From positions 1,003,109 to 1,027,108 of the forward strand of contig CAWBFD010000002.1 of assembly GCA_963788115.1 (NCBI GenBank): 24,000 nt of DNA, read 5' to 3'. The position numbers and the translations under genes were made by a program. Below the pieces are notes generated by a model. The model was not told the origin of the DNA. It ran no database searches and saw only the letters and a list, made by a program, of their open reading frames with translations. Numbering within the stretch: position 1 is the first letter of the stretch; every line of letters begins with the position of its first letter. The stretch comes from an uncultured Actinomycetes bacterium (GTDB lineage Bacteria > Actinomycetota > Thermoleophilia > Solirubrobacterales > 70-9). Shown here piece after piece: positions 1-19,712 of this stretch.

Positions 1-327
1 GTCGCCAACGGGCTCGCCAATGCCACGTTCATGGTCGTCATCAACCGGATCGGGCTCGAGGAGCCGGTCGAGTTCTACGGATCCTCGTTCGTCTCGGACC
101 CCTACGGCCGGGTGCTCGTGCGGGCGCCGCGGGACCGGCCGGCGGTCCTGGTGGCGGACCTCGATCTCAACCATCGTCGCGACTGGCTCGGCTTCGGGCT
201 GATCACGACCCGCCGGCCGGACCAATATCGCCGGCTCCTCGAGGGCGAGGCGCGCCTGAGTCGCGCCGCCGCAGTCGGGGACCGGCTTGGAGGCCCCGCC
301 AATGAAGAGCCTCCCGGTGCGCGCTGA
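1..327 (+). CDS. Carbon-nitrogen hydrolase (nitrilase superfamily), N-carbamoylputrescine-amidase-like; 3' part only, 5' end lies off-window
   Basis: Frame 1 is open from nt 1 (VANGLANATFMVVINRIG...). The run FYGSSFVSDPYGRVL...VLVADLDL...RRPDQY matches the C-terminal region of AguB/CPA-type CN-hydrolases as I remember them. GC3 is high. The last ~25 aa, after RRPDQYRRLLEG, look non-conserved. Confidence 0.7.
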   Translation, partial: VANGLANATFMVVINRIGLEEPVEFYGSSFVSDPYGRVLVRAPRDRPAVLVADLDLNHRRDWLGFGLITTRRPDQYRRLLEGEARLSRAAAVGDRLGGPANEEPPGAR

Positions 328-1453
328 GCGTCAGACTGCCCGAGCCGATCTGAAGACGGCTCGTGGGGCGCGGGCGGCGGGCTTGGGGTTGATCCTGGAC
401 ATGGGAGCCGCGAACGCCGCGCCGAAACCGCGCCGGCCGATCAGCGCTGGGAAGCTGCTCGCGTTGCCGGAGCCGGAGCTCGCCGCGCACCCGCCTGCGA
501 TCGCACGGGCGGCCGCGACGATCGCCGGACTGAACAAGAGCGAGCACACGAAGCGGGGCTATGTCTCGGATCTGCTCGCCTTCTGCGAGTGGCACCCGGC
601 CGGGTACGAGCTCGACTGGGGCGCGATCACCTACTCGGACGTCGCCGACTTCGACGGGGCCATGGTCAAGCGGGGCCTCAAGCCCGCCACCCGTGCGCGC
701 CGGCTGGCGGCGCTCGGACGGTTCTACACCGAGCTCGTGCGCCGCGGACACGTGCAGGCCTCGCCATTGGTTGCGGTCGAGCGGCCACGCGTGGAGTTCT
801 CGCCGGCCGACAAGGGGCTATCCGCCGCCGAGCTGACCCGGCTCCTCGAGGCGGCCGAGCATCGCGGCCCCCAGGCTCATGCGCTCGTCTGCCTGCTCGG
901 CCTACCCGGCCTCCGCATCTCCGAGGCGCTCGGCATCGACGCGGGACAGGCCACGCGCGACGTCGACGGGCTCGCGGTGGTGCGATCGACGGTGAAGGGC
1001 GGCCGCTCGCGGACGATCACGATCGGAGAGCGCACGCTCGCCGCGATCGAGGCGCTCGAAGCGGAGCGGTCGCCCGGGGAGCCGCTGTTCCGCCGCGCGA
1101 CCAATGCGCGCGAGCAGGCCGCGATGGCCCGTCGCGGCGAGCCGGTCCGGCTCCACGTGCGGATGAGTCAGCAGATGGCGGGGGTCCTGATCGCGGAGCT
1201 AGCGGCCGAGGCGGAGCTTCGCGAGCGAAGCGGCAAGGCCAAGGTCGTGACTCCGCACACCCTGCGCCACACCGCCGCCTCGCTGATGTATGACGAGACC
1301 CGCGATCTGCGCGCGGTTCAGGAGCAGCTCGGCCATGCGTCGCCGGCGACCACGCAGCGCTACGACCGCGGCCGGCGGAAGGAGGCAGCCGCGGCGCTCG
1401 CGGCGGCGGACCGGGCGATCGGTAGGTCTGGGCGGCCTCCGCAAAGTGGCTAG
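302..1453 (+). CDS. Tyrosine recombinase / phage-type site-specific integrase
   Basis: The catalytic signature is visible: LRISEAL (Arg), HTLRHTAAS (His-x-x-Arg), LGHASPATTQRY (His plus nucleophile Tyr). An N-terminal core-binding-like segment is present (TKRGYVSDLLAFCEW, RRLAALGRFY). Start set at ATG 302 because GGAGG (289-293) lies 8 nt upstream; ATG 287 and ATG 401 are in-frame alternatives. The gene overlaps the hydrolase 3' end by 26 nt. Confidence 0.9.
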   Translation: MKSLPVRAERQTARADLKTARGARAAGLGLILDMGAANAAPKPRRPISAGKLLALPEPELAAHPPAIARAAATIAGLNKSEHTKRGYVSDLLAFCEWHPAGYELDWGAITYSDVADFDGAMVKRGLKPATRARRLAALGRFYTELVRRGHVQASPLVAVERPRVEFSPADKGLSAAELTRLLEAAEHRGPQAHALVCLLGLPGLRISEALGIDAGQATRDVDGLAVVRSTVKGGRSRTITIGERTLAAIEALEAERSPGEPLFRRATNAREQAAMARRGEPVRLHVRMSQQMAGVLIAELAAEAELRERSGKAKVVTPHTLRHTAASLMYDETRDLRAVQEQLGHASPATTQRYDRGRRKEAAAALAAADRAIGRSGRPPQSG

Positions 1454-1991: not shown

Positions 1992-2409
1992 GTTCATCAG
2001 CCTCCGGGTAGCAGCGGCCAACCTCATATTCCTCTTGGCTTATCGCGTTGTCGCTCTCGCACTCCGCCGACTCCCCGCTGAGACTGGAAACGCAGCTCTC
2101 AGAATCAGACTTGATCAGTAGGAAGTAGGCGGCAGCCCCGCAAGCGACCAAGATAACCGTGCCGAGAGCGAGAACTCGAGTTTGGGAATGCGCAGCGTCA
2201 AGGTAGTGAGAGCCCAGTCCGCGCGTGTCCGGATTGTCCAAGCTGATCGCCTTCTGGCTTACCCGCAGCGCCGCGCGCCGGCAAGGGGGATCCGCATGGC
2301 GCCGATCGCACGAGTCTGGGGCCTGATCCGCGGTCATCAAGTGACGGGATCGGCTGACGCGTTGCTCGTATCGCTCACCGCAGACCTCTCGATGAGGTGC
2401 GGGTAGTGA

Positions 2410-3111
2410 TCACCGTCGGGCCCTTCCTCTTCCGACGCTGTGAATCACCGGATGAACGGTGATCCTGCGGCTGTAATCCATATGGACGCGGCGGACCGTG
2501 TAGGCACGCCATCCGGTCACCGTCACCGTATATGTCCAGTCGTTTCCACTGCGGCTCCAGTCCTTCGAGATCCGGCCTTGCGAGCAACATCCGAGGTATC
2601 CGCTCGCGCCGGTGTCGATACTGCGAGCATCCCCCGGAAGCTCGAAGTGATAATGGGCGATGGCGTAGCGACCACCCCAGCAGTCAAGCTGGAGCTCGCC
2701 ATAGAAGCCATCGAGGTAGCAAGGCCCCTGGCGGGATCGCGAATCGGTCTCGGTGCCGCTTCGCGTGCTGCTGTAGTGGCGCCACTGGTGGCGGGTGACG
2801 CGCTTATGGATTCCTCGGCAGGTCAGGTAGATGGGCTTCCCAGCGCGCGGCGTGCGGTAGCCAAAGCGGATCTTCGACGAGGAAAAGCGAGTCACCGGCC
2901 GGATCGATGTATAGGTTCGGGTTCCATCGTTCTTTAGTGCCCGCCCATGACAACTCCATCCGGAGCCGAACTTCCAACCATGCAGCGTTTCTGCTGTGAA
3001 CCCGAACGGGCCAATATTGGAAATGTTCAGCTCTTGGCCCGCGCTGGCGCTGCTAGCGCTCAGTGAGAGCGCCAGAAGAGTAAGGCCACAGGCAAGTACG
3101 GCCTTTTTCAC
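2410..3111 (-). CDS. Secreted Cys-containing protein of unknown function
   Basis: 233 aa. The GTG start overlaps the stop of the upstream gene (GTGA at 3108-3111). Signal peptide MKKAVLACGLTLLALSLSASSASA/GQE. The mature part has six Cys (SCHG, TCRG, PCYLDG, LDCWGG, GCCSQG). I recognise no domain. Confidence 0.7.
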   Translation of the reverse strand: MKKAVLACGLTLLALSLSASSASAGQELNISNIGPFGFTAETLHGWKFGSGWSCHGRALKNDGTRTYTSIRPVTRFSSSKIRFGYRTPRAGKPIYLTCRGIHKRVTRHQWRHYSSTRSGTETDSRSRQGPCYLDGFYGELQLDCWGGRYAIAHYHFELPGDARSIDTGASGYLGCCSQGRISKDWSRSGNDWTYTVTVTGWRAYTVRRVHMDYSRRITVHPVIHSVGRGRARR

Positions 3112-3743
3112 GCTACCTCCACTGTCGTAACTCGTTCTTCATGTAGGTCGACTGTTTGCGGGTCCCGGCGTCTGAACGCCAGCACCGCTGACAGAACGAC
3201 CATCGCTACGCCTGCGCCGAGCGTCAGGTAAATCCCCCAGCCCGGCTCAGCAATGTCGATCGTGCGTCCGAGAAGTTGCGCCGTGTCGTTATCCGAGATC
3301 TCCGATAGGACGCGAATGCTGTCGCCCGCGACGAACAGTCCGACGAGCAGCGGCCAGACCAATGCTCCTCGGGCTCGGGTCTTCGCAAAGGCCCATAGCG
3401 AGCCGAGCGCGGACAGTGCGCCGAGAATGAACCAGATGCCGTCCACGTCCATCCCGCTCTGGCTCACTAATGCGTTCGTGACCCACGGTCCGAACGACCC
3501 GACGATGATCCCCAAGATGGCGAGGCCCATCATCCAGAACTGACGAGGCTGTTCGGCCAGGACACCGACGATGCGGTTGGCCACGTCGTTGCCGGGCGCT
3601 TGAGCTGTGACCGTCTCGCCTTCGCGGCGATGGTCGGTCCAGCTCTCCCCATCCCACCAGCGTTCATCGCGCCCTTTGGGGTCGCGGTACCAGCCGGCTG
3701 CTGGCAGTTCGGTCATGTGTCCCACGTGCTCGTTCATGTGCAT
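3108..3743 (-). CDS. DUF2510-domain membrane protein
   Basis: The N-terminal AGWYRDPKGRDERWWDGESWTDH is the DUF2510 GWYPDP...RWWDG..WT motif. About four hydrophobic helices follow (FWMMGLAILGIIVGSFGPWV, GIWFILGALSALGSLWAF, ALVWPLLVGLFVAG, GWGIYLTLGAGVAMVVLSAVLAF). ATG 3743 has AAGG 7 nt upstream; ATG 3716 is an alternative start. Confidence 0.8.
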   Translation of the reverse strand: MHMNEHVGHMTELPAAGWYRDPKGRDERWWDGESWTDHRREGETVTAQAPGNDVANRIVGVLAEQPRQFWMMGLAILGIIVGSFGPWVTNALVSQSGMDVDGIWFILGALSALGSLWAFAKTRARGALVWPLLVGLFVAGDSIRVLSEISDNDTAQLLGRTIDIAEPGWGIYLTLGAGVAMVVLSAVLAFRRRDPQTVDLHEERVTTVEVA

Positions 3744-3814
3744 CTGATTGCCTTATCGGCAGTTCGCCGTCATACTTAAACGTATGCGGTCGAGTGCAGA
3801 CGCTCCGAGCAGAC

Positions 3815-3827
3815 ATGCGTCACGCAT
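3815..3827. promoter_or_regulatory. Perfect palindrome ATGCGT-c-ACGCAT, candidate operator in the divergent promoter region
   Basis: Read directly: atgcgtcacgcat at 3815-3827. A third TATGCG half-site lies at 3783-3788 and a CATAC-n6-GTATG inverted repeat at about 3771-3786. All sit in the 103-nt gap between the DUF2510 gene start (3743, minus) and the XRE start (3847, plus). Confidence 0.4.
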
Positions 3828-3846
3828 ATCGAATACAACTCCGGGC

Positions 3847-4168
3847 ATGGAGGCCGGGGAGGTTCCGCGTCCGTTTTTGCCCTGGCTGGGGCGCGCCTGT
3901 CGCCAGGCGCGCGAGGAGCGGGGGGTGGTCCAGGTGAGGATCGCGGCGGCGATCGAGGTAAACCAGGCGACGATCGCGCGGTTTGAGGACGGCAGCGCCT
4001 GGCCGCGGCGCCCCGAGGAGGTGCTTGATGGCCTACGCCAGCGAGCTCGACATGGACGTGCGCCTGATCTGGGTTCGCGCCCTGGTCATGTGGTTCGAGC
4101 ACGAGCCGGTCTTAGAGCAGGAGAGTCAGGAGCGGATTCGGGCGGCGCTCGAGCGGCTGCGGATCTAG
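3847..4168 (+). pseudogene. XRE-family helix-turn-helix regulator interrupted by a 1-nt frameshift near 4024-4030
   Basis: Frame 1 reads MEAGEVPRPFLPWLGRACRQAREERGVVQVRIAAAIEVNQATIARFEDGSAWPRRPEEVL. High GC3 then switches to frame 2, which reads MAYASELDMDVRLIWVRALVMWFEHEP...RLRI-stop at 4166-4168. Joined, the two pieces form one contiguous XRE HTH domain. Frame 1 downstream of 4027 has poor GC3 and an R/A-rich tail. Confidence 0.6.
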
Positions 4169-4196
4169 GGCGGGGGTCGATAGTGGGTCGGCTGCC

Positions 4197-4221
4197 GTCC
4201 GCTCAGGGCAGGCGGACATTT
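4197..4221 (+). terminator. Weak hairpin after the XRE gene: GTCCGC-n9-GCGGAC followed by ATTT
   Basis: Read directly: gtccgc at 4197-4202, gcggac at 4212-4217, attt at 4218-4221. The stem is only 6 bp and the T-run is short. Confidence 0.3.
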
Positions 4222-4427
4222 GCGCGAAGGTCCGGGGCCCGTGCGAGGCTCGTCGATCCCAATCCTCGTCTGCGGTCCGCGCGATGGTTGCGGTCCCGGT
4301 GAGAATCTCAATGAAGGGCTCGACCGGGAACCCACCTCCCTCCAGCCACTCGAAGGGTGAATGGGCCGTCGCGCGCCGGGAAACTCATCGCGGGGCCGTC
4401 GGGCTGCTGGACAGGCGGCGGGCCCGC

Positions 4428-6092
4428 TCAGACCGGTCGTGCGGCGCTTGCTGCCAAGCGGGTCTCGACCACCGTCTCCGCCTCGGCCGCACTCTCGCTG
4501 TAGCCGCTCACGGTGGGCACGAAGTGGCGTCGATCGAGCGCGTAGAGCGTCAGCGGCGTGCGCGCTCGGACCGTCGTGATGCGTGGGACATCGCGCAGCA
4601 GCGCGATCTCGCCGAAGGAATCGCCATCCGAGAGGAGGCTGAGCAGGCGCCCATTCTTCGTCACCTCGACCTCTCCGGAGACGATCACGTAGAAGCTGTC
4701 GCCCACCTGCCCCTGCTCGATCACGGTCCCGGCGGGCTCGATCGATTCCTCACGCACGTTACGGGCGAGATGCTCGATCGTGGAGACCGGCAGGGGCCGG
4801 AGCATCGTCACCTGGCGGAGGCGGTCGATGATGTCCGCCTGCGCGCCAAGCCCATCGTCCACCCTGACGAGGCGCGACCAGGCGAGGGCGACGACGGCAG
4901 GAGTCATCAGCCCGATTGCCACCAGCGCCCCCCTGATCCCGAAGAGGTAGATGAGAAGTGGCGTGATAATGGCCCCGAGGCCAACGGCGAGTGCCACCAG
5001 GCTCTCCAGCGCGCCGAACACCCGCGCCAGAATCTCATCGGGCATGAGGCGAGGGAACAGCGTGAAGTAGCCGAGATCCACCAGAGCGTTCCCGGCGCCC
5101 ACGATCGCGAGCATGACCAGGGCGATGAGCTCGGAGGGGAAGACCCCGATCATGGCGAGCGGCGTGCCCCAGAGCGCGATCCCCAGCCCTGTGTAGGCCG
5201 CGAGGCGTCGGCTCCCGACCAGGATCGAGGCTCCGAGCGATCCCACCACGGCGCCGACGCCGATGGCCGCCGTCAGGACGCCCACCCCCGAGTCCCCGGT
5301 CTCGAGGAGCTCGATGGCGACCACCACGGTGAACACGTTGAGCGCTCCCCGGGTCACCGCCTGGACCGCGCCCAAGCCGAACAGCATTGTCACATCGCGT
5401 TGTGCCGCGATCGCGCGTAGGCCCTCCGCGGTGTCGGCCGCAACCCGAATCGGGGCGGGCGGCGCCTCGCGCGGCGCGGGCTCGTAATCGATCAGGCTCA
5501 CCAAGAAGGCCGACCAGAGCGATAGCACCGCCGTAAGCACGAAGACCGCCTCGGGGCCGCGGACGTCGAGCAGCAACGCTGCGAGCAGGGGGCCGATGAG
5601 CGTGCTGGCGGAATCGAGCAGCCCCCGCGAAGCGTTCGCGGCGGTCAGCTCCTTCGGGGTCTCGCACAGCGCCGGCAGGAGCGCCGAGTGCGCGGGACGG
5701 AAGGCCGTGAACGGGATCGTCGCGATGACCGCGAGCAAATAGACGAAGACGACCGACAGATCCACGGCCATCACCACCGCGGCCGCCCCCACCGCGGCTG
5801 CCCGCATAACCCCGATCCAGATCAATACCCGATCGCGGCGAACGCGGTCGGCTACCGCCGTCGCGAATGGGGCGACAAGTGCCGAGGGGAGCATGCGGAT
5901 CAGCGCCACGATGCCGACGGCGGTAGCGCCCCCGTCCCGGAAAGCCACGACGCCCAGCGCGACCGTGAAGGACCACTCGGCCGCGTAGGCAGAGCCAAAG
6001 GCCAGCTGAGCGCGGCGCAGGTCCGGGCGGCGCAGGTTCGAGGCGAGCGCGGCGCCCCCCTCCGCCAACCGTCTTCCGACGGCGTCGATCAT
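4428..6092 (-). CDS. MFS transporter (EntS/MFS_3-like) with C-terminal cyclic-nucleotide-binding domain
   Basis: 554 aa. The first ~410 aa are hydrophobic with multiple (about 12) TM segments. The last ~130 aa form a CAP_ED-type CNB domain (GDSFYVIVSGEVEVTKNG...GDSFGEIALLRDVPRITTVRA...LYALDRRHF). Confidence 0.9.
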   Translation of the reverse strand: MIDAVGRRLAEGGAALASNLRRPDLRRAQLAFGSAYAAEWSFTVALGVVAFRDGGATAVGIVALIRMLPSALVAPFATAVADRVRRDRVLIWIGVMRAAAVGAAAVVMAVDLSVVFVYLLAVIATIPFTAFRPAHSALLPALCETPKELTAANASRGLLDSASTLIGPLLAALLLDVRGPEAVFVLTAVLSLWSAFLVSLIDYEPAPREAPPAPIRVAADTAEGLRAIAAQRDVTMLFGLGAVQAVTRGALNVFTVVVAIELLETGDSGVGVLTAAIGVGAVVGSLGASILVGSRRLAAYTGLGIALWGTPLAMIGVFPSELIALVMLAIVGAGNALVDLGYFTLFPRLMPDEILARVFGALESLVALAVGLGAIITPLLIYLFGIRGALVAIGLMTPAVVALAWSRLVRVDDGLGAQADIIDRLRQVTMLRPLPVSTIEHLARNVREESIEPAGTVIEQGQVGDSFYVIVSGEVEVTKNGRLLSLLSDGDSFGEIALLRDVPRITTVRARTPLTLYALDRRHFVPTVSGYSESAAEAETVVETRLAASAARPV

Positions 6093-6156: not shown

Positions 6157-6900
6157 TCACCACATCGAGTACGCCAGCGACCGCGCCTCGCTCGCGTTCC
6201 CTCCGGGCGCGCCGGGAAGCCCGGGCAATGGGACCGGGCCACGGCAGAGATATGGCTCGCCATGGCGAACGCCGATCATCGCTCCGAACCAGCGCGCCCT
6301 CACCTCCAACAGCTCCAGGAAGTCGCCGCCGCTCAGCGCCGTCGCCGGATCGCCGCCATCGGGGGAGAACTGGCTGCGGTAGCAGCCCACCGCCGCCCCC
6401 TTCTGCTCCCAGACCTCGGAGATGTCCACCACGAAGGAGGGCTCGAAAGGCGAGTGCGCCATATAGGAGAACTGGCGCGCGGGACGGTGTACGCCGCCGC
6501 TGCCAACCCGGCCCACGCCCGCCGCGAAGCAGCCCTCCCTGACTATCCTCCCCGCCGCCTCGTGATCGGGGTGGCGATCGGTGTCGTTGGGGGCCAGGAC
6601 GGTGTGTGGCCTGGCGTCGCGAATCACATCGACCACCCGCGCCACCGCCTCGCGCGACCGCCCGAGCTCGCCGTCGGGCAAGCCCAGCGCGATCCGCTCG
6701 CTGAGCCGGAGAGTCTGCGTCGCCGCCTCCCGCTCCGTGGCACGACCTGCTGGGGTCCCCCGAGTTGCCCGCTCTCCGTTCGTCAGGTCGGCGACACCGA
6801 CTCGCAGCCCCTGCCGCACCGCGAGCGCCAGCGCACCGCCGCAGCCGATCTCCGCATCGTCGGGATGGGGGGAGAAGGCGAGGACGTCGAGCGGGTCCAA
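6157..6900 (-). CDS. bshB1: Bacillithiol-type GlcNAc-malate deacetylase, BshB1-like (PIG-L/LmbE family)
   Basis: VLAFSPHPDDAEIGCGG...GVADLTNGE...DRHPDHEAAG...FVVDISEVWEQKGAAVGCYRSQF matches the BshB1/PIG-L motifs (HPDD, DxHPDH). The TTG start at 6900 lies one nt after the upstream stop (TGAgTTG). The gene sits in an operon with a BshA-like gene. Confidence 0.8.
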   Translation of the reverse strand: MDPLDVLAFSPHPDDAEIGCGGALALAVRQGLRVGVADLTNGERATRGTPAGRATEREAATQTLRLSERIALGLPDGELGRSREAVARVVDVIRDARPHTVLAPNDTDRHPDHEAAGRIVREGCFAAGVGRVGSGGVHRPARQFSYMAHSPFEPSFVVDISEVWEQKGAAVGCYRSQFSPDGGDPATALSGGDFLELLEVRARWFGAMIGVRHGEPYLCRGPVPLPGLPGAPGGNASEARSLAYSMW

Positions 6901-6901
6901 C

Positions 6902-8065
6902 TCAGCGCCCCAGGAGATAGCTCACCATCAGGCTGTCCGCGACAAGACCGGTGCCGTCGGGGTCGCGGGACGTCAGGCTCTCGGGCACGATCATCGGTAT
7001 CGGCTCCTTTTCGAGGGCCTCGCGGAGCACTCTGTTCAGCACCATGCCGTAGATCGCGCTGCTCCTGCCGGCAACCACTCCACTCGCCAGGTCGTTGATG
7101 AGCGTGGGTAACAGCACGTCAGGACTCCACCGTCGAGTCTGGGCGATTTCATCGAACGACAGCTGTCGGCGACCGAGCCGAAACCGGTAGGTGGCCCCGC
7201 ACCGACAGGTCGCGACCGCGTAGGTGCCGTCCGTTTCGTCGCGGCGCCGGAGCGGGAGACGGGTTGCGTCGGATGCGCAAGAGATGCGCAGCGGCAGGTA
7301 GTCGTCGGCGAGCGGATGGAGCAGGGGGTCGATCCCGCCCTCCCTGAGCTCGAAGAGGGCGCGATTGAAGACCTGGATCACTCGCGGCAGGACGTTAATG
7401 CAGGCCTCGACCTGCTCCGTCAGGTCCTTCTCCTCCAGCAGCGTCGAGAGGCGTACCGGCGCCAATCTGATGCCGTTCTCGGCGAGGAGGAGGTCGGTGA
7501 CCTCGGCGCTCAGGTCCGCGAGGGTGTCCGCAGGGCTCCCCAGGAGGACGGCGCGAAGGTGCGCATAACGGTCCAGCCCGCGGGCCCCGACGCCGGCTTC
7601 GCCCAGGTATGTCCTGAGCCGATCCAGTGCCTTCCTGAGCTCTCGCTTCTCGATCGGGATGAACCGGGGCTCGCGATCCTTGCTCCCGGGTGGAGCCATG
7701 GAGACGCCGACCCGCCCGCCTCGCCGTGGCCACGAGATCACGGTCATCCGCTTGTCAGAGCCGGCGCGGTCCACATCGACCCAGAGCCCGCACCCTCTGA
7801 CATCGTGGTCCGCCTGCAACTCGCCGAGAGCGGCGAGCTTGGCGAACACCGACGCGCCGTAGTCGACGGACAGCTGCTGGCCCATGTATACGGTGGCGCT
7901 GGCACGGCCCTCGTCGCGGCCGGAGTGCCGGGAGAGGCGAGCGAGCGCGTCCCTCCCCGGCGGGGCGATGGCCTCCAGGAAGAGGCCCCGGTCGAGGAAG
8001 ACACCCTCCTCGCGCAGGAGCGCCGCGCCTCGCTCGGACGCGGCGAGTTCCGATAGGGCGCTCAT
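6902..8065 (-). CDS. Short, divergent BshC-like protein (candidate cysteine-adding enzyme) lacking the C-terminal coiled-coil region; otherwise hypothetical
   Basis: 387 aa from ATG 8065, which overlaps the bshA stop (ATGA). Two motif resemblances to BshC from memory: VYMGQQLSVDYGASVFAKLAAL...LWVDVDRAGSD versus GGQQAGLLTGPLYTIHK...FWVAGEDHD, and SPDVLLPTLINDLASGVVAGRSSAIY versus the S.NV..RPL.Q..LPT.A.I.GPGE..Y region. Its position between bshA and bshB1 supports the call. That it is a real CDS is near certain; the functional call is tentative. Confidence 0.45.
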   Translation of the reverse strand: MSALSELAASERGAALLREEGVFLDRGLFLEAIAPPGRDALARLSRHSGRDEGRASATVYMGQQLSVDYGASVFAKLAALGELQADHDVRGCGLWVDVDRAGSDKRMTVISWPRRGGRVGVSMAPPGSKDREPRFIPIEKRELRKALDRLRTYLGEAGVGARGLDRYAHLRAVLLGSPADTLADLSAEVTDLLLAENGIRLAPVRLSTLLEEKDLTEQVEACINVLPRVIQVFNRALFELREGGIDPLLHPLADDYLPLRISCASDATRLPLRRRDETDGTYAVATCRCGATYRFRLGRRQLSFDEIAQTRRWSPDVLLPTLINDLASGVVAGRSSAIYGMVLNRVLREALEKEPIPMIVPESLTSRDPDGTGLVADSLMVSYLLGR

Positions 8066-9228
8066 ATGCAAGCCCCGCCGACCTGGCGGCCCGGGCGAGC
8101 GTCCCTTGCGCCTCGATCGACCAGGTCCCCGTACAGCTTCTCGTAGAGCGGCACGATTCTCTCGCAGGCGAAGCGAGCGGCCTGCCGCCTCGCGGCGCTG
8201 CCGACTCTGCGGCGCAGCGATGGGCGAGCGAGCAGCTCGGCCACCGCGTCGGTGGTGGGGGCGTGGGCGCCAACCGGAAACAGGTGGCCGGACGTTCCAT
8301 CACCGACCACCTCGGCGAGACCACCCACCCGGGTGGCGACCACCGGGATGCCACTCGCCATCGCCTCCGCCGCGGCCAGGCAGAAGCTCTCGACGACGCT
8401 GGTCATCAGCAGCAGATCGGTCTCAGGCAGGATCGTCGCGACGTCGGTCGTGGCGCCGAAGAAGCGCACGGCGTCTTCCGCGCCGGCCGCGGAGAGCATC
8501 GCTCTCAGCGCAGGCAGCCTCGGCCCATCTCCAACCAGCCACAGCTCGGCATCCATGCGGTCGCGGACCGAAAGGAAGACGTGGGCCAGGCTGCGAGGAT
8601 CCTTTACGCCCCGGAAGTTCGAGACGTGAACGATGCGAGGCCGGTCGCGATGGGGGGACTGCGTCGGCTTGAACCGGGTGATGTCGATGAAGTTCGGGAT
8701 GACCAAGGGCGGCTCGCGCAGGGCGAAGAGATGGCGGGCGAGCCGAGCGTGGTCGTGTGAGACGGTGGTGACCGCGGCGAGGGCGTGCAGGCTTTCGCTG
8801 AGCAACCGGCGCTGGGCCGGCTGCCGGCCGTGGATGCTGACGTCGGTGCCGTGAAGCGTCGCGACCGTCACCGGACCCGCTTCTCCAAGCCCGCGGGCTA
8901 ACGACGCGGCGACGTGCGCGAACGGGACCGCGTAGTGCGCGTGCAGAACCTGGAGGTGCTCGCGACGCGCAACGCCCGCCACGAACGAGCGGAACTCGGC
9001 TTGCTCGTTGCTGCTCCAGTCCACATTCAGGCCGACCGGGATGCCCCCGTTGGCAGGGGGAAGGAGGGTGTGCAGGACCACCCCGCTGTCTCTCAGCCAG
9101 TCTGCCACCGGCGGCCGGCGTGCCATCAGATGAACGCTGTGTCCGCGTTGCGCGAGCTCGCTCGCAAGGGTGCAGGCGATCCGGACGCTCCCCCCGATTC
9201 CGTTGTGGCAGAGGAGGCCGACCCTCAT
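8062..9228 (-). CDS. bshA: GT4 glycosyltransferase, BshA-like (N-acetyl-alpha-D-glucosaminyl L-malate synthase)
   Basis: The N-terminus MRVGLLCHNGIGGSVRIACTLASELAQRGHSVHLMARRPP matches the BshA pattern (C-x-P-x-x-GGS...RGH-x-VH). GT4 C-terminal motif: ESFCLAAAEAMASGIPVVATRVGGLAEVVGDGTSGHLF. ATG 9228 overlaps the upstream stop (ATGA). Confidence 0.8.
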   Translation of the reverse strand: MRVGLLCHNGIGGSVRIACTLASELAQRGHSVHLMARRPPVADWLRDSGVVLHTLLPPANGGIPVGLNVDWSSNEQAEFRSFVAGVARREHLQVLHAHYAVPFAHVAASLARGLGEAGPVTVATLHGTDVSIHGRQPAQRRLLSESLHALAAVTTVSHDHARLARHLFALREPPLVIPNFIDITRFKPTQSPHRDRPRIVHVSNFRGVKDPRSLAHVFLSVRDRMDAELWLVGDGPRLPALRAMLSAAGAEDAVRFFGATTDVATILPETDLLLMTSVVESFCLAAAEAMASGIPVVATRVGGLAEVVGDGTSGHLFPVGAHAPTTDAVAELLARPSLRRRVGSAARRQAARFACERIVPLYEKLYGDLVDRGARDARPGRQVGGACI

Positions 9229-12200
9229 CCAAGCGATCCGGGCTGGGTGGCCATTCTCTTCGCGAGAAGCATGAGAAGCGCCCGAGACACCTCCGGCTGG
9301 GCTTCCAGCAGTCGCTCGAGCTGCTCCTCCTCGAGCACGATCAGCCGCGCTGGGCCCCGAGCGACGATCGAAGCGCTCCGTGTCACCTTTCCGAGCGCCG
9401 CCACTTCGCCGATACAGGCCCCCCTTCCGCAGACCGTCAGCTCTTCCTCGGCGCCATCACGGCGCCTCAGGATCGAGACCTCCCCCTCGCGGATGACATA
9501 CACCTCACGTGCGGGATCGCCCTGAGAGGAGATCACGGTGCCGTCCTCCACGAGACGCTCCGATGCGAGCTTGGCCAGCGTCGCCAGTCGCGAATCGGGC
9601 AGCGAGGCGAAGATCTCCGTCCCCTTCATGAACTCCATCCTCTCCGACAGGCGGACCGCTGGGAGCGCGAGGAGGTTCGCGAACAGCCGGAAGGCCCCGG
9701 GCACCCCGGCGGCCAGCTGGCGGTAGAGCGAATAGCCGCAGTAGACATAGGTGCCGCGCCCGTAGTCGGCGACCATTAGCCCGCCGAGCCTAGGATCCTC
9801 GCCTGGATCGGCGCAAGCCAACAGCGGCCGGTAACGTCGATCCCACTCGCCAAAGAAGTACCGACCGCGCTCCTGGACCCACCCGTCGAAGTCCTCGTCC
9901 CGGATCTCGTTGGGCACGTGGAAGAGGGAGTGTTCGGGCGCGAGGAAGCGGACGGGGGCCCCCTCGTCGGTGACGCGATCGTGGGGCTCGCTGTAGCGGA
10001 AAGGGTACGGGGCCAAGCCTGGCGCCTGATAGCCGTACGGCTGATGCTGGACGATCAGCGTCCCCCCGCCTTCGATGTAATCCAGTACGCGGCGGGCGGC
10101 TGCCCGGAGCTGGGCACTCCTCGAGTAGGCACCAGGCCCAACCATGATCGCGTCGAAGCGAGAAAAGTCGAGGCGCTGGAGCTCCTCGTCGTCGACCACG
10201 TGGAACCGGGCCCCAAAGGGCTCCAGCAGCCCCGCCACGTCTTCCTCGTCGCCGGCGATGTAGGCGCAGTGCAGTGATCGAGCGAAGCGAGCCTGAATGA
10301 GATGAAGCTCGACCTCGGCGGGGCTGAGCAGGAAGGTCTCGCGAATGCAGCTCGCGGGATCGGGCTCGCCGGTGAGATGCGCGGGACCCATGCGCGCGGG
10401 CATGAGGCCCGTTGTGTAGCTACGCCCCTCCACGTGCACGCGATAGCGAAGCGACTCGCTGCCCGGCGAAGCGGTGGCGGGAATGGTCAGTGCGAACGAA
10501 TAAGGCCGACTCTCGTCGCCGCCGAGCGAGAGGTCGATCCCGCTCGGATCGACGGCCGTACCCGAGGGGGCCTCGAGCTCGAGCCGGCCGCTCAGGGTCC
10601 TCTCGGTGTGGTTGCGCACCAGCACGTCGAGCTCGATCTGGATCTGATCGGCGATTGGGTCCGGCTCGAACGGCTGTCGTAACGGCCGGCCTCTCCCCTC
10701 GCGCCGTTCATGGCGCGCCTGCGCACACACCACGGCGGAGTCGGAGCGTAAGGAGACAGGGGGGATGACGGCGGGGTAGAGCTCGCGGAAGCCGCCGGGA
10801 AAAGCGCTGCGCGCGACGGCCGGGGCTCGGATCACGAGACGCTTTCCTTCCACCTGAATCTGGCACTGGGCCTCGAAGCGAGGGGGGCGGAAGGGACGCG
10901 AGCAGTATCGCTCCGGCGGCCAGCGGTATGCGTACGGTTCCGGTGGCTCCACCAGCCAGTACGGGCAGCTGAGCGCAGCCCCTTGCGACACGCTGACCGT
11001 GAACCCCGTCTCGACGTCCGCGCCGGGCCTCGCCGCAGAGCCGCCGTCTCCGTCGTTGGCCGTTTGCACCCGGCAGTCAGGCGAAACGCGGAGCCGTGTG
11101 GCCTCGATATCGACGTCGAGTGGCCCGAAGTTCCAGAGGCGAGTCCGGACTTCGAACGTTTGTCCCGGGATGACGTGCACGGCCCCACTGCGGCACTCCA
11201 GTCGTAGGCCGAGGCATGCCGCGGCCGTCTCCTCCAGATCGTCGAGCTTCCGCAGCAGATACGTCGACAAGGCCACCCTAGGTGGCCCCGCGAGGCGGGA
11301 GTCGAGCTGTGAGACGGCCGCGCGGGTGGCCGATATTGCCGAGAGCAGATGGCGTCCCGCCGCGGTGGCGTCTGGGCTCCGGTAGGCGGCGAGCGCTCCC
11401 TCGATATGTCCCTTGATCCCCTGTAGTTGCTCCCGCAGCCACCCGGAGTCCTCCCCCGCATGGTCGGCGACCCCGGTGAGCTCGGGATCAAACCCCTCGA
11501 GGAGGCCCCCTTGCCGGCTGACATCCCCGCCTTCGTCGCGACTCGAGTCCTCTATCAGCCGGTAGTAGTAGACGAAGCGGCCGGGCCCGGGAAGCAACGC
11601 CATTCCTTGCGAGATGTGCTGGTTGAGCGCCGACCAGCCCTGCTCCTGAAAGGTTCGACCACCGATTGGATCCAGCGCTCCCGTGTCGATGCGGATCAGT
11701 CCCTCCCGCTCCAGGTCATCCCGCAAGGCCCCTAACGACGCCAGGTCCTGTTCGGGCATCCAGTCCCCGCCCACCGACTGATAGAGCCGCCGCGGCTGCC
11801 AAGCCTCCAAGCCCAGCCGACGGAGCTCCGGGAACAGATTGGGGTCGCCGGCCGCCCGAAACGCCTCGGCCGTCACTGCCCCCACGGCCTGATGGTGGCC
11901 GTGCTCGTCGGCGGGCTGTCCGGTCCAGCGGGAGATGACGATCTCCGGCTGCACAAGGCGTATGGCCCGAACGATCTCGCGAAGTACGGCCTTTCTTCCC
12001 CACTTCGCGAGCGTGTCGGAGCCGCTCTTGCTGTAGCCGAAGTCATAGAAGGGGCCGAACAGGGCCTCCGCTCCGTCGATGGCACGAGCGTCTTCGCTCT
12101 CCCAGCTGCGGAAGACTCCCAGCGCCTCGCCTCGGTAGGAGTTGAGCCGATTCTGCCCAGCCTCTCCCCGCGTGGCGGACCAGTAGACGGTGCGCACGCA

Positions 12201-12356
12201 GAGGCCGTGTGCGAGATAGGCGAGGAGACCGCTGTCCTCGTCGTCGGGGTGCGCTCCCACCTGAAGCACCGCACCGGCCATCGGCAGCGACCGGAGCCGA
12301 TAACTCAAGCCGGCGGCGTCGAGGGATGCCCCTTCCTGGCCAACCCGCCACCCCAC
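9225..12356 (-). CDS. Large LmbE/PIG-L-family deacetylase with GATase1-like C-terminal module and an appended cyclic-nucleotide-binding domain
   Basis: 1043 aa. N-terminal PIG-L motifs: VGAHPDDEDSG, ATRGEAGQN, DEHGHHQA. Residues ~700-890 (FDAIMVGPGAYS...GGTLIVQHQ...APYPFRYSEPHDRVTDEGAPVRFLAPEHSLF...DFDGWVQERGRYF...GTYVYCGYSLYRQLAAGVPGAFRLFANLL) match the conserved C-module of the ~800-aa LmbE-family proteins I recall from Bacteroidetes. The last ~130 aa form a CNB domain (VYVIREGEVSIL...GACIGEVAALGKVTRSASIVA). The GTG start at 12356 is preceded by GGAGGAG. Confidence 0.85.
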   Translation of the reverse strand: MGWRVGQEGASLDAAGLSYRLRSLPMAGAVLQVGAHPDDEDSGLLAYLAHGLCVRTVYWSATRGEAGQNRLNSYRGEALGVFRSWESEDARAIDGAEALFGPFYDFGYSKSGSDTLAKWGRKAVLREIVRAIRLVQPEIVISRWTGQPADEHGHHQAVGAVTAEAFRAAGDPNLFPELRRLGLEAWQPRRLYQSVGGDWMPEQDLASLGALRDDLEREGLIRIDTGALDPIGGRTFQEQGWSALNQHISQGMALLPGPGRFVYYYRLIEDSSRDEGGDVSRQGGLLEGFDPELTGVADHAGEDSGWLREQLQGIKGHIEGALAAYRSPDATAAGRHLLSAISATRAAVSQLDSRLAGPPRVALSTYLLRKLDDLEETAAACLGLRLECRSGAVHVIPGQTFEVRTRLWNFGPLDVDIEATRLRVSPDCRVQTANDGDGGSAARPGADVETGFTVSVSQGAALSCPYWLVEPPEPYAYRWPPERYCSRPFRPPRFEAQCQIQVEGKRLVIRAPAVARSAFPGGFRELYPAVIPPVSLRSDSAVVCAQARHERREGRGRPLRQPFEPDPIADQIQIELDVLVRNHTERTLSGRLELEAPSGTAVDPSGIDLSLGGDESRPYSFALTIPATASPGSESLRYRVHVEGRSYTTGLMPARMGPAHLTGEPDPASCIRETFLLSPAEVELHLIQARFARSLHCAYIAGDEEDVAGLLEPFGARFHVVDDEELQRLDFSRFDAIMVGPGAYSRSAQLRAAARRVLDYIEGGGTLIVQHQPYGYQAPGLAPYPFRYSEPHDRVTDEGAPVRFLAPEHSLFHVPNEIRDEDFDGWVQERGRYFFGEWDRRYRPLLACADPGEDPRLGGLMVADYGRGTYVYCGYSLYRQLAAGVPGAFRLFANLLALPAVRLSERMEFMKGTEIFASLPDSRLATLAKLASERLVEDGTVISSQGDPAREVYVIREGEVSILRRRDGAEEELTVCGRGACIGEVAALGKVTRSASIVARGPARLIVLEEEQLERLLEAQPEVSRALLMLLAKRMATQPGSLG

Positions 12357-12489: not shown

Positions 12490-13428
12490 CTATTCGCACC
12501 CCGCTCCGTCGCCGTTCGCGTCGAGCCCGTGCGGGTCGGACCCGGTGACCGCAACGGTGCCGTTCAGATCCGCGCAGTCGACGTCCGGCGGGTATGTCGG
12601 CACGCAGGGGGAGTAGCCGGACTCGCATCCACTGCCGGCGCCGCCGGCGCTTGCGACGCCCCGCGCGCCGCCACCATCCGGGTTGCCGCCCGCACCGCCG
12701 CCGCCTCCTCCGACGGGCTTGTCGGTGTCGCCGCCACAGGTCTTTGGTGACCAGAGCCCGCGGGCGTGCCGGCGGGCGTCGGCCGCCAGGCGCCGGAACA
12801 GCTCCGCGTACTCGACGTTGGGCGGGATCGTGAGCGGCGCCGCATACCCCTCCTTGACGAGGGCCGCGTTGAAGAACGTTCCTCCCGCTAGCCAGAGATA
12901 CACGAGGTCTCGGCCGTAGTCGTCCACGCGCTCGACCCCTGGCAGGTAGTAGACGGTCTCTCCGGGCGTCATCAGGCGCGAGGCGAACGCCGAGGCCTCC
13001 TCCCCGTAGCACTCCTCGCCGAAGTACACCTCGGGCGTGTCGACCCCGATCAGGCGCGAGGCGCCGATTCCCGCGAGCTCGACCGTGTCCCCGTCGGTGA
13101 TCGAGACCACGGTCGTCCGCTTGGTGCGATCGGGGATACCCAGGGCCTCGGACTCCGGCTTCTCTTGCTCCGGCCGCTCGGTTCGCTGGTCGTCATCGCC
13201 TGCACCGGACTGACGCGGCCGCCGGCGCGAGCCGGCGTGGCGATCGCCCCCCTCTTGGCCGCCATCGATCGGCGCCTCGTTGCCGGCGGCGTCGCCCGCC
13301 GAGGCGGCTCGATGGTCGGGGCGGGGATCCTCCCCACCGTCGGAGATCACGGCGACCGCGACCACCACGGTGATCGCCAAGGCAATCAACGAGCCGAGCC
13401 AGATTCTTCCTGATTGTCGCTGCCGCAT
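12490..13428 (-). CDS. Membrane-anchored thermonuclease (SNase) family nuclease with C-terminal Excalibur-like calcium-binding domain
   Basis: N-terminal TM anchor (IWLGSLIALAITVVVAVAVI), then a charged linker. SNase core: VVSITDGDTVEL...RLIGVDTPE...GRDLVYLW...FNAALVKEGYA. Gly-rich linker. C-terminal DCADLNGTVAVTGSDPHGLDANGDGAGCE matches the Excalibur motif. Confidence 0.9.
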   Translation of the reverse strand: MRQRQSGRIWLGSLIALAITVVVAVAVISDGGEDPRPDHRAASAGDAAGNEAPIDGGQEGGDRHAGSRRRPRQSGAGDDDQRTERPEQEKPESEALGIPDRTKRTTVVSITDGDTVELAGIGASRLIGVDTPEVYFGEECYGEEASAFASRLMTPGETVYYLPGVERVDDYGRDLVYLWLAGGTFFNAALVKEGYAAPLTIPPNVEYAELFRRLAADARRHARGLWSPKTCGGDTDKPVGGGGGGAGGNPDGGGARGVASAGGAGSGCESGYSPCVPTYPPDVDCADLNGTVAVTGSDPHGLDANGDGAGCE

Positions 13429-13748: not shown

Positions 13749-15842
13749 CTAGCGGGTCCGCGCGACCTCGGCCGCGAACCAGACCGAGAGCCCGCCGGCG
13801 ACGCTGCGCAGTGCCCGCGAGAGCCGGGGGTCGATCCGGTCGGATGCGCTTGCCTGCGTCGCGGCAACCCAGGTCAGACCCGCGCCCAGCCCGAGCGCCA
13901 CCGCGCGTCCTGCGCGCACGACTTTCTGCTCGAGCCGGGCCGAGGTGAACTTGACCTCGAGCTGCCGCCCCGGCCGGCCGCCGACGACGGTCGCCAGGCC
14001 GTCGGAGACCTGGCTTGCCCGGTAGCGCAGCCGCTCCACCTCGTAGATGATCTGCTGTGGATCCAGGCGCCCGGCCAGCCGCCGGGAGATGCTGCGCAGG
14101 AAGAAACGCCGCGCCTCCTCGATCGGGTCGAGCTCCGGGGCGAGCTCGGAAACCGCGCCGTCGACCTGGGCCAGCGCCTTGCCGACCATGACGAAAGCGG
14201 GCGGCAAGGGCACTCCGTGGCGAACCGAGATCGCCGTGAGCTGGTTGAGCAGCTCGACCAGGTTGAGATCTTGGAGTGGGCGACCACGGATCTCGGCGAC
14301 CACGGCCGCGATGTCGTTGCGATAGTCCTCGACATCGACGTCGGTGGCGTCCGCCACAGCACCCAGATCGAGCGAGACATCGGCGAGCAGATCGACGTCG
14401 CCCTGTGCGAAGGCGAGCAAAACGAGGAACAGCTGGCGGCGCGTCTGGCCCTCCAGGCGGCCGACCATGCCCAGGTCGAGCAGCCAGATCCTGTTGTCGG
14501 CCCAGAGCATGTTGCCCGGGTGGGGGTCGGCATGGAAGAAGCCGTCCTCGAGGACCTGCTTGTAGTAGGCCTGGATCAGCTGACGCGCCGCCTCGGTGCG
14601 TTCCGGGCCCTCCGGGGCATCGAGCAGCGGAACCGCGTCGACGATCTCATCCATGACCAACAGGCGCGCGGTCGAGAGCTCCCGGTGACAGCGCGGGACG
14701 CCGATGCGGTCATAGCCGGCGACGATCTCGCCCATGCGGACCATGTTGCGCGCCTCCTCGCCGAAGTCGAGCTCGTCGCGAAGCGCGCTCGAAACCTGCT
14801 GGGCGAGCGACGGGATGTCGATGATCCGGTTTAACCGCTGCGAGCGCGACGCAGGCCTGATGATCATCTCGAGCAGCGCGAGGTCGTTCTCGACCACCTC
14901 CTCGGCCTCGGGGCGCTGGACTTTGACCACCACGCGGTGGCCGTCGGCCATTCGCGCCCGATGCACCTGGGCGATCGTCCCTGCGGCGAGCGGCTCGGGA
15001 TCGAGCGAGGAGAAGACGTCCTCCCAGGGAACGGCGAGCTCGCGCTCCATCATCGACACGACCTCCGCCTCGGACATCGGCGGAACGTCCGACTGCAGGG
15101 CGGCGAGCTCGGCGACGTACTCCTCGGAGATCAGGTCGGGACGCGTCGAGAGGACCTGGCCGAGCTTGCCGAAGGTCGGTCCCAGACTCTCGAACGCCTC
15201 CCGCAGCCGCCGCGGCCCGTCCGGGTCACCCTCGAGGCGGAGCAGCCGCCCGGAGAGCTGGCGGATCCCGACCGGACCGAGGACGCGGCTGATCTCGCGC
15301 GCCCGGGCGTGCAGCCGACCCGAGTCGAGGGTTCCCTCGGACGCCGGCTCGCCGGTGGTCGTGTTGACGACCACCACCGTGCAGTCGGCGAGATGGGTGA
15401 CGCGATTGGCGATGTTGCCGAGCAGGAACTGCTTGCGACCGCGCATACCCGAGCTGCCGACGACGACGACGTCGGCGTCGGCCTCTCGGGCGGCGGCGAG
15501 GATCACCGTTGCCACGTCCTCGCCCGACTCGACCACGGCGCGGGCGCGGATCCCGTCGGTGGGCAGGGAGCGCTCGAGCGCCGCGCGCAGCCGCGCATGC
15601 GCGGCCTCGTCCGGGGCCGGTGCGGCCGGCTCCGACCCGGCCTCTGGTACGCCGTTCTCGGCGGCGGCATCCATCGCAACCGATTCGGGCTTCGAGGCGG
15701 GCTTGACCACCTGGATCGCGAGCAGCTCCGCGCCCGTCGACCTGGCAAAGCTCGCCGCCCATTCGACCGCGAGCGCGGCTCCGGCGCTGCCGTCGGTAGC
15801 TACCGCGACCAGGCTCGTTTCTGCACCCATCGAAGCGAGCAT
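13749..15842 (-). CDS. Universal-stress-protein domain fused to an ABC1/UbiB-family atypical kinase, with two C-terminal TM helices
   Basis: USP part: LVAVATDGSAGAALAVEWA...DVVVVGSSGMRGRKQFLLGNIANRVTHLADCTVVVV. UbiB part: LGPTFGKLGQVLSTRPDLISEEYVAELAALQSDVPP, AAGTIAQVHRARM, VVVKVQRP, DELDFGEEARN, FFHADPHPGNMLW. Start set at ATG 15842 (ATG 15830 is also possible). The ORF extension to 16049 is R-rich and overlaps the upstream gene. Confidence 0.85.
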   Translation of the reverse strand: MLASMGAETSLVAVATDGSAGAALAVEWAASFARSTGAELLAIQVVKPASKPESVAMDAAAENGVPEAGSEPAAPAPDEAAHARLRAALERSLPTDGIRARAVVESGEDVATVILAAAREADADVVVVGSSGMRGRKQFLLGNIANRVTHLADCTVVVVNTTTGEPASEGTLDSGRLHARAREISRVLGPVGIRQLSGRLLRLEGDPDGPRRLREAFESLGPTFGKLGQVLSTRPDLISEEYVAELAALQSDVPPMSEAEVVSMMERELAVPWEDVFSSLDPEPLAAGTIAQVHRARMADGHRVVVKVQRPEAEEVVENDLALLEMIIRPASRSQRLNRIIDIPSLAQQVSSALRDELDFGEEARNMVRMGEIVAGYDRIGVPRCHRELSTARLLVMDEIVDAVPLLDAPEGPERTEAARQLIQAYYKQVLEDGFFHADPHPGNMLWADNRIWLLDLGMVGRLEGQTRRQLFLVLLAFAQGDVDLLADVSLDLGAVADATDVDVEDYRNDIAAVVAEIRGRPLQDLNLVELLNQLTAISVRHGVPLPPAFVMVGKALAQVDGAVSELAPELDPIEEARRFFLRSISRRLAGRLDPQQIIYEVERLRYRASQVSDGLATVVGGRPGRQLEVKFTSARLEQKVVRAGRAVALGLGAGLTWVAATQASASDRIDPRLSRALRSVAGGLSVWFAAEVARTR

Positions 15843-16005
15843 AGGTCGGCTGCGGGGCGGGCGCAATAACGGGCGGTCCGTGGGCGCGGCTGGTTCCGAA
15901 GCAACGACCTCTCGCGTGTGACTCGTCCGCGGAGGCAGCGAGACGTGATTACTGAGGATCGGGCGTTCTTGGTCGGCCAGGAGTCGATGAGCGGCCGCCG
16001 CAAGC

Positions 16006-18881: not shown

Positions 18882-18916
18882 TGCGGCCGCGATGTATCAC
18901 AAAGGGTCGACTCGGG

Positions 18917-19351: not shown

Positions 19352-19712
19352 CCGCCCAACCGTAGATTGTTGGTCATCCCTCCGGCGGGCGACCACAAGC
19401 CCAGCGCGCCAGCCCAATGCGCGTCCCCCCGCAGGGGCGGGAGCGACTCGGCGTCGATGCCGCTGCGCGCGATCACCCACGAGATCACCGAGTGTCCACA
19501 CCTCGCCGGTGCGAGTTCGTCCCGACCCCCAAACGGGAGTCGGGACCTCGGGGACGAGATCGAGCACGCGCCGCGCGAGGCGTTCGTCGGCCGTCAGCCG
19601 CCGGGGCTGTCGACGGGCCCGCAGCAATTTCCCGTAGCACGCCGGCCTAGTCCAGACGGGAGCCGAGGCGGGTCTTGCGAAGGCGCGGCCATCGCCTTGC
19701 CATGATCGGCCA

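Follow-up and report, generated by a model that had tools for sequence, protein, structure and literature searches.

A divergent BshC-fold protein without the coiled-coil domain in a BshA/BshB1-type gene cassette, and its proposed role in a bacillithiol-type pathway

We analysed a 24,000-nucleotide (nt) stretch of DNA from an uncultured Actinomycetes bacterium of the Solirubrobacterales (contig CAWBFD010000002.1, positions 1,003,109 to 1,027,108 of the forward strand), which is referred to below as the window. In this stretch an open reading frame (ORF), here designated X, lies between a gene for a BshA-like glycosyltransferase and one for a BshB1-like deacetylase, the position at which a cysteine-adding enzyme of bacillithiol synthesis would be expected. 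An earlier note, made from the letters of the window, had offered two identities for its product, a minimal BshC or an unrelated enzyme of the third step. What kind of protein X is, and whether it could complete the pathway, is the question that this locus raises.

Our results favour the minimal BshC, based on its fold, the nature of the missing domain, motifs that fall in register and the linkage of the genes. We consider it likely, with a probability of roughly two in three, that X is a very distant homologue of BshC, corresponding to its Rossmann-like catalytic domain without the coiled coil, and that it carries out the third step in a bacillithiol-type pathway whose genes form one coupled cassette. 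The three genes concerned are:

6902 to 8065, minus strand: X, a protein with a BshC-type fold and no coiled-coil domain, proposed to be the cysteine-adding enzyme of the third step (ORF, AlphaFold2 model, Foldseek, conserved family)
8062 to 9228, minus strand: BshA-type GT4 glycosyltransferase, 388 amino acids (aa), proposed maker of N-acetylglucosaminyl-malate (GlcNAc-malate); TIGR03999, 269.8 bits against a trusted cutoff of 273.7
6157 to 6900, minus strand: BshB1-type PIG-L deacetylase, 247 aa, proposed to convert GlcNAc-malate to glucosaminyl-malate (GlcN-malate); TIGR04001, 255 bits against a cutoff of 182.5

When read from its ATG on the minus strand, X encodes 387 aa, as the earlier note had it. 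An in-frame TTG located two codons 5' of this ATG would make a protein of 389 aa; the ATG is the likely start, because the homologues of X begin at the same M/V-S-A-L. The TGA stop codon of the bshA-like gene (8064-8062) and the ATG of X (8065-8063) overlap as ATGA, and a single nucleotide separates the TGA of X (6904-6902) from the TTG at 6900 with which the bshB1-like gene begins. The translational coupling of X on both sides that had been read from the letters was thus confirmed. In addition, the gene for a 1043-aa PIG-L protein (9225-12356) overlaps the bshA-like ATG by 4 nt, and the four genes stand head to tail and tightly packed in the order 1043-aa PIG-L, bshA-like, X and bshB1-like.

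Family and predicted fold of X

A search of 5.8 billion clustered proteins returned 76 homologues of X, down to 35% identity and nearly all 376-392 aa in length, and an exhaustive profile search of 1.84 billion cluster representatives gave only 174 matches at E<=1e-3. The X family is rare, and every source name seen for a relative was "hypothetical protein". Alignment of 36 sequences revealed 25 invariant columns, mostly polar, charged, glycine or proline residues, which together with the conserved length of the homologues indicates that X is not a chance ORF. No Pfam-A or NCBIfam model matched X even at E<=10, and neither phmmer nor the family profile found anything but noise among all PDB sequences (armadillo repeat designs and a carboxypeptidase, E>0.005). 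As judged by these model searches, the family is new to Pfam (2025) and NCBIfam (June 2026), neither of which holds an entry for it. X does not represent a new kind of system; it is best placed as a very divergent, domain-reduced variant of BshC within a known pathway.

The AlphaFold2 model of X, built from the 36-sequence alignment, had a mean predicted local distance difference test (pLDDT) value of 92.1 and a predicted template modelling (TM) score of 0.90. In a Foldseek comparison of this model with the PDB, Bacillus subtilis BshC (4WBD) ranked first (E 7.8e-13, probability 1.0, query-normalised TM score 0.64, 376 columns, 14% identity), covering essentially all of X. Class I lysyl-tRNA synthetase (LysRS; 1IRX) ranked second, with E 7e-10 and a query-normalised TM score of 0.50. 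Below it came a gap of seven orders of magnitude before the glutamyl- and methionyl-tRNA synthetases, MshC and others (E >= 1e-2, TM score <= 0.3). X thus has the Rossmann-like fold of the BshC catalytic domain in this comparison of models, and the ranking that the earlier note had left to a structural search placed BshC first and LysRS second, with MshC and cysteinyl-tRNA synthetase (CysRS) far behind.

Two of the lower-ranking matches, LysRS and MshC, can be set beside X. LysRS was the second structural neighbour of both models examined, the second being that of a distant relative described below, and a Rossmann-type catalytic core is common to LysRS and X; in contrast, its anticodon-binding domain is absent from X, and its TM score to X is lower than that of BshC. 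MshC, the cysteine ligase of mycothiol synthesis in many Actinomycetota and a CysRS paralogue, catalyses an analogous addition of cysteine to a glucosamine-aglycone and has the class I aminoacyl-tRNA synthetase (aaRS) Rossmann fold. MshC retains aaRS signatures and a zinc-dependent cysteine site. Its structure (3C8Z) matched X weakly (E 2.5e-2, query-normalised TM score 0.26-0.30), no sequence similarity to X was seen, and the neighbours of X are of the BshA/BshB1 type rather than the MshA/MshB type. An MshC-like or aaRS identity of X was rejected on the basis of the fold ranking and the missing domains.

A sister clade of longer proteins was matched by the X profile at E values of 1e-15 to 1e-23, and it provided the second model:

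Locus L026, 8001 to 9350: member of a sister clade of X of 416-495 aa, found by X profile search (proteins of the clade: P0185, P0186, P0191, P0192, P0196, P0198, P0202 and P0207)

Protein P0185 (MBN1662223.1, 449 aa) is annotated as a hypothetical protein and comes from a metagenome-assembled genome (MAG) labelled Deltaproteobacteria. Its model (pLDDT 94.4) also retrieved 4WBD first (E 3e-11, 421 columns) and 1IRX second, with TM scores of 0.57 to BshC and 0.41-0.43 to LysRS. By two models that are largely independent of each other, BshC is thus the known structure closest to X. Sister-clade proteins share with X the invariant Q, D, K, R, P, R, G, G, Y and P positions; they differ in being 30-100 aa longer, with extra helices, in lacking a cysteine cluster of X (described below), and in having a loop F-x-x-D-Y...G-S-D in place of W-x-D-x-D.

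Correspondence between X and BshC

When a profile of X enriched to 146 sequences was aligned to BshC with hhalign, a single long collinear alignment was obtained, joining X 53-358 to BshC 81-374, which was not statistically significant. In this register, 15 of the 31 column pairs that are at least 80% conserved in both families are identical, namely (X/BshC) V59/V87, Q63/Q91, Q64/Q92, K76/K105, W95/W129, G102/G132, P247/P273, L259/L284, R269/R292, S314/S328, V317/V331, P320/P335, G333/G350, Y339/Y356 and P357/P373. Shifted registers gave 0-5 identical pairs, a control that is descriptive only, the alignment having been optimised for similarity. The two motif resemblances to BshC that had been noticed by eye fall in register here, and their corrected numbering is given below.

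The size difference between the two proteins can be assigned to a domain. BshC (YllA) consists of a catalytic domain (PF10079, Rossmann-like_BshC, residues 1-378) and a coiled coil (PF24850, CC_BshC, residues 380-539). The alignment of X stops at BshC residue 374, just 29 residues of X lie beyond that point, and no PF24850 match was found in X. Based on these boundaries, X is best described as the BshC catalytic domain only, minus about 28 N-terminal residues, with the whole 160-aa coiled-coil dimerisation domain gone. The shortfall of about 150 aa that the earlier note had remarked on is accounted for by this domain.

The conserved elements of X are listed below; counts out of 147 refer to members of the superfamily.

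7838 to 7882, minus strand: G62-Q63-Q64...D68...K76 (residues 62-76), strand 1 and the start of helix A, at the HIGH position of class I aaRS; Q64, D68 and K76 conserved in 141-145 of 147
7769 to 7783, minus strand: W95-x-D97-x-D99 (residues 95-99), loop after strand 2; W95, D97 and D99 conserved
7661 to 7672, minus strand: E-P-R-F (residues 132-135); E132 and R134 invariant in the 36-sequence alignment, R134 in 145 of 147
7199 to 7279, minus strand: C263, D266, R269, C287 and C289 (CRCG) in a four-stranded beta-meander (residues 263-289); from conservation, with strands taken from the AlphaFold2 model
7049 to 7129, minus strand: W313-S314-P-D316-V...P320...G329...V-A-G333-R-S335-S-A-I-Y339, last Rossmann strand and loop, at the KMSKS-equivalent position; conserved

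Four motifs of BshC were compared with these elements: G-Q-Q...K, F-W-x-A-G-E-D-H-D, S-N-N-V-x-x-R-P and G-P-G-E-x-x-Y-W. From them X shares, in the register of the non-significant alignment, Q-Q, K, W, G, S, V, P, G and Y, together with R292. Residues 62-76 of X align to BshC G90-Q91-Q92...K105, W95 to the invariant W129 of F-W-x-A-G-E-D-H-D, and S314, V317, P320, G333 and Y339 to S328, V331, P335, G350 and Y356. R269, which is present in 147 of 147 superfamily members, aligns to the invariant R292 of BshC. Neither X nor BshC has HIGH or KMSKS; G-Q-Q and a G-x-x loop stand at these positions in each. For E-P-R-F no clear BshC counterpart was found in the collinear alignment, and X has invariant charges of its own without a BshC counterpart, at D68, D97, D99, E132 and R134.

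The CRCG motif pointed out in the earlier note is present as C287-R-C289-G290. In the AlphaFold2 model, it forms part of a cysteine cluster at one end of the four-stranded beta-meander. Of the 147 superfamily members, 107 have C-D-C-C at positions 263, 266, 287 and 289, and 7 have C-C-C-C. About 25 (about 17%) have lost the cysteines, as has the entire sister clade, and those at 287 and 289 usually disappear as a pair. The interchange of aspartate and cysteine at position 266 and the joint loss of cysteines suggest a structural Cys3Asp or Cys4 metal site. This cluster, including CRCG, is probably a metal knuckle, the metal probably being zinc; it seems to be dispensable, and B. subtilis BshC has nothing equivalent. 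The idea that CRCG forms a catalytic or cysteine-selecting zinc site, as in CysRS or MshC, was rejected: members that have lost the cysteines, including the whole sister clade, keep the cassette.

Several results weigh against identifying X with BshC. PF10079 and the NCBIfam BshC models did not match X at E<=10, and a BshC hidden Markov model (HMM) run with --max recovered no X ORF. Comparison of the X profile by hhalign with B. subtilis BshC alone, with 22 and with 119 BshC sequences was never significant (probability 0.2-0.45%, P about 0.13-0.3), with a set of canonical BshC sequences drawn from Bacillaceae only (>=45% identity), which limits the sensitivity of the profile comparison. Bridging sequences were not found either: a third large protein search with the combined X and sister-clade alignment gave only 8 matches, none of them bridging to BshC, and Pfam searches of eight longer, distant relatives of X revealed no PF10079 bridge. 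Homology between X and BshC is thus not statistically demonstrable at the level of sequence. Furthermore, the BshC-invariant residues E133-D134-H135-D136, N329-N330, R334 and E353 are not kept in X. There is also an asymmetry within the cassette, in that BshA and BshB1 are recognisable at the equivalog level and X is not, which fits an ancient paralogue that may use other chemistry. Finally, nobody has yet reconstituted the BshC reaction, a point that the earlier note had also made, or identified its cysteine donor (PMC5790435), so that the statement that X works like BshC names no mechanism; no later report settling the activation chemistry of BshC was found in the literature.

Gene linkage and the proposed third step

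Genomic context was examined in 21 loci from a scan of one genome per GTDB species and in loci located by exact look-up, 27 loci in all, and in the window (28 sequences). The 21 scan loci came from MAGs of Solirubrobacterales, Conexibacteraceae and other Actinomycetota, of Anaerolineae and Anaerolineales, one of Competibacteraceae and one alphaproteobacterial, and from Stella vacuolata; the loci as a whole span Actinomycetota, Anaerolineae, Alpha- and Gammaproteobacteria and the single Deltaproteobacteria-labelled MAG. Of the 28 sequences, 27 have a BshB1-like gene adjoining X and 25 have a BshA-like gene there; short or truncated contigs account for the rest. The earlier note had reckoned with a family that bears no similarity to BshC and occurs mostly away from bshA and bshB; instead, we observed the structural match to BshC described above and BshA- and BshB1-like genes beside X in all loci of sufficient length. 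The order of the genes is not fixed (A-X-B, X-A-B, and X with B and A on the opposite strand all occur), and the linkage is always kept. Because the linkage survives these changes of order, it argues for a functional unit rather than inherited synteny. BshC is likewise functionally linked to bshA and bshB; however, bshC is only occasionally co-localised with bshA (PMC5790435), whereas X is always found within the bshA/bshB operon.

The two partners of X are more readily identified. TIGR03999 is the best NCBIfam model for the BshA-like protein of the window, which falls just under its trusted cutoff; the corresponding scores elsewhere were 321.5 bits in L011 (Anaerolineae), above the cutoff, and 254.9 in L019 and 205 in Stella, below it. 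The closest PDB relatives of the glycosyltransferase are Bacillus anthracis BshA (2jjm/3mbo, 1e-53) and B. subtilis BshA (5d00, 7e-47), with MshA at about 1e-13. The BshB1-like proteins exceeded the equivalog cutoff of TIGR04001 in the window and, at 245-268 bits, in loci of three other phyla.

No canonical BshC was found by tblastn or with the BshC HMM within the 350 kb of DNA examined. In a 2025 survey of RefSeq by phylum, no organism of the Actinomycetota, Chloroflexota or Pseudomonadota had the complete set of BshA, BshB and BshC (PMC12719100, supplementary file 2); most hosts of X are MAGs outside RefSeq. Both observations are indirect and are consistent with X as a replacement of canonical BshC, and X differs from BshC in that it is found in phyla without a reported canonical pathway. 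The findings point to a bacillithiol-type thiol pathway in groups reported to be without a complete one. In the literature searched, no paper combined bacillithiol with Thermoleophilia, Solirubrobacter, Conexibacter, Rubrobacter, Anaerolineae, Chloroflexota or Stella.

In the pathway that we propose, the BshA-type GT4 enzyme would form GlcNAc-malate from UDP-GlcNAc and L-malate, and the BshB1-type deacetylase would convert it to GlcN-malate. X would then link an activated L-cysteine, through its carboxyl group, to GlcN-malate at the 2-amino group, yielding bacillithiol or a very close analogue. BshC itself is required for bacillithiol synthesis, and a bshC mutant accumulates GlcN-malate (PMC5790435). 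Catalysis would take place in the cleft at the C-terminal ends of the Rossmann strands, which would be lined by residues conserved between X and BshC: Q63/Q64 and K76 at the HIGH position, W95, R269, S314, P320, and G333...Y339 at the KMSKS position. The charged residues specific to X (D68, D97, D99, E132 and R134) could bind the malyl carboxylates and the amine. We infer cysteine as the substrate, its activation, whether through ATP and an adenylate or as Cys-tRNA, and the product from this assignment. By analogy with other aaRS-fold enzymes that lack ATP motifs, Cys-tRNA(Cys) is a possible donor for X.

The most serious alternative is that X, with its fold of the BshC and class I aaRS type, attaches a group other than cysteine or acts on another aglycone, so that the cassette would make a new variant of low-molecular-weight thiol or a glycoside that is not a thiol. 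The extreme divergence of X from BshC, set beside a BshA and a BshB1 that are close to their families, would fit such a product, and the invariant charges of X without a BshC counterpart and the large additional PIG-L/cyclic-nucleotide-binding protein of the cassette, which is not known from bacillithiol synthesis in Bacillus, point the same way. The acceptor is not certain to be malate, as three of the BshA-like proteins (those from the window, L019 and Stella) stay under the equivalog cutoff. However, BshB1 exceeds its cutoff in all tested loci and BshA does so in Anaerolineae, the PDB entries nearest to the GT4 protein are BshA enzymes defined by experiment, the positions in common with BshC are concentrated in presumed active-site elements, and no further tailoring genes recur in the cassette. 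On balance we regard a different product as unlikely.

Alternatively, X could be an inactive or accessory protein with a BshC fold, such as a scaffold, chaperone or regulator of BshA and BshB, with the cysteine step left to an enzyme encoded elsewhere. X, like BshC, lacks the canonical nucleotide-binding signatures of class I aaRS, and BshC may itself require an extra protein partner (PMC5790435). On the other hand, about 25 polar, charged or glycine positions are invariant from Actinomycetota to Proteobacteria at 35% identity, which is typical of an active site, the three-gene linkage is strict with no fourth ligase-like gene recurring, and the alphaproteobacterial cassette consists of BshA, X and BshB only; such a role appears improbable. 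A truncated LysRS-like protein with a role in tRNA metabolism or translation, placed in the operon incidentally, is very improbable in spite of the second-best structural match, since BshC scores better in both independent models, no aaRS model of Pfam or NCBIfam matches X at E<=10, only about 30 residues follow the core and leave no anticodon-binding domain, and the linkage to BshA and BshB is invariant across phyla and rearrangements of gene order.

If X is the BshC-type enzyme that we favour, several consequences follow. Surveys of the distribution of bacillithiol rest on a BLAST-detectable BshC, to which the X family is invisible, and X lies within BshA/BshB1 operons in Actinomycetota, Chloroflexota and Pseudomonadota, phyla scored as being without the complete pathway. 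The map of users of bacillithiol-type redox buffers may therefore be incomplete, including abundant soil Solirubrobacterales and the Anaerolineae of wastewater and sediment. A 387-aa version without the dimerisation domain, sharing about 15 residues with BshC, also narrows the chemical requirements and offers a second, independent system for the BshC reaction. More tentatively, X and its sister clade might be an undescribed ancient branch of the BshC superfamily that actually carries out the third step in Thermoleophilia, Anaerolineae and some Proteobacteria, where bacillithiol or a new thiol of the cysteinyl-glucosamine type would be made, and that is tractable for the donor question. Were this so, the monomer-sized X could reveal the activated cysteine donor, which has been unknown for BshC since 2010. 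An experimental host with the bare BshA-X-BshB cassette exists in Stella vacuolata ATCC 43931 (L021, AP019702.1, 4865-7858), a cultured alphaproteobacterium with a complete genome, in which the cassette is likely a horizontal acquisition.

Neighbouring genes and other observations

Two further genes adjoin the three of the cassette in the window:

9225 to 12356, minus strand: 1043-aa protein with an N-terminal PIG-L/LmbE (Mca-like) domain, an NPCBM_assoc middle part and a C-terminal cyclic-nucleotide-binding domain (Pfam, NCBIfam and PDB cyclic-nucleotide-domain matches)
4428 to 6092, minus strand: major facilitator superfamily (MFS) transporter fused to a C-terminal cyclic-nucleotide-binding domain (Pfam MFS_1 and cNMP_binding)

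The gene for the 1043-aa protein, coupled to bshA, is the fourth conserved gene of the cassette. The best sub-threshold model for its product is the mycothiol conjugate amidase Mca, and about 250 of its residues have no family match; by analogy, it may be a cyclic-nucleotide-regulated thiol-conjugate amidase. Of the 28 sequences, 23 have a long PIG-L gene next to the cassette. In L001 it is divided between two genes, both alphaproteobacterial loci lack it, and in L026, the locus of P0185, the cassette comprises an 844-aa PIG-L protein without the cyclic-nucleotide-binding domain, a GT4 protein, the X homologue and a 237-aa PIG-L protein.

The MFS gene starts 64 nt downstream of the bshB1 stop codon. 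It is found directly downstream of the cassette in seven loci of the Solirubrobacterales/Conexibacteraceae type (L004-L010), and L019 has a homologue that is upstream and on the other strand. Two fusions to cyclic-nucleotide-binding domains flanking one operon are unusual. Speculating from domain content, the PIG-L and MFS fusion proteins could provide conjugate amidase and export functions, as with Mca and Bca.

Three relatives of X are joined to other sequences. P0067 (282 aa) carries the C-terminal part of a GT4 protein joined to the N-terminus of X, P0171 (575 aa) a middle segment of X joined to part of a PIG-L domain, and P0169 (417 aa) 146 unidentified residues followed by the N-terminus of X. 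These could be real fusions, or artefacts of gene calling or frameshifts at the overlapping start and stop codons.

Beyond the MFS gene, the window contains a tyrosine recombinase/phage integrase gene (287-1453, plus strand) and a DUF2510 gene (3108-3743, minus strand) beside a stretch of lower G+C content (2001-4000, 0.62-0.63 as compared to about 0.70), and the edge of a mobile element may lie just past the transporter. Upstream of the cassette are a gene for a homologue of secreted nucleases (SNase, 12490-13428) and a run of stress-related genes (13749-19783, minus strand). This run encodes a Usp-ABC1 atypical kinase fusion (13749-16049, minus strand), a quinol-type nitric oxide reductase NorB with a cytochrome-c-like domain (16545-18881, minus strand) and a hemerythrin-domain protein (18917-19783, minus strand).

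In Stella, the cassette adjoins a gene for a serine hydrolase of the class-C beta-lactamase/AmpH type (3222-4829). A 1123-aa protein encoded in L002 (14105-17476, minus strand) combines indoleamine 2,3-dioxygenase, cytochrome b5 and NAD_binding_1 reductase domains, and fusions of this type recur within a few kb of the cassette in six loci (L002, L003, L013, L015, L022 and L024), four of which are labelled Anaerolineae/Anaerolineales or Actinomycetes.

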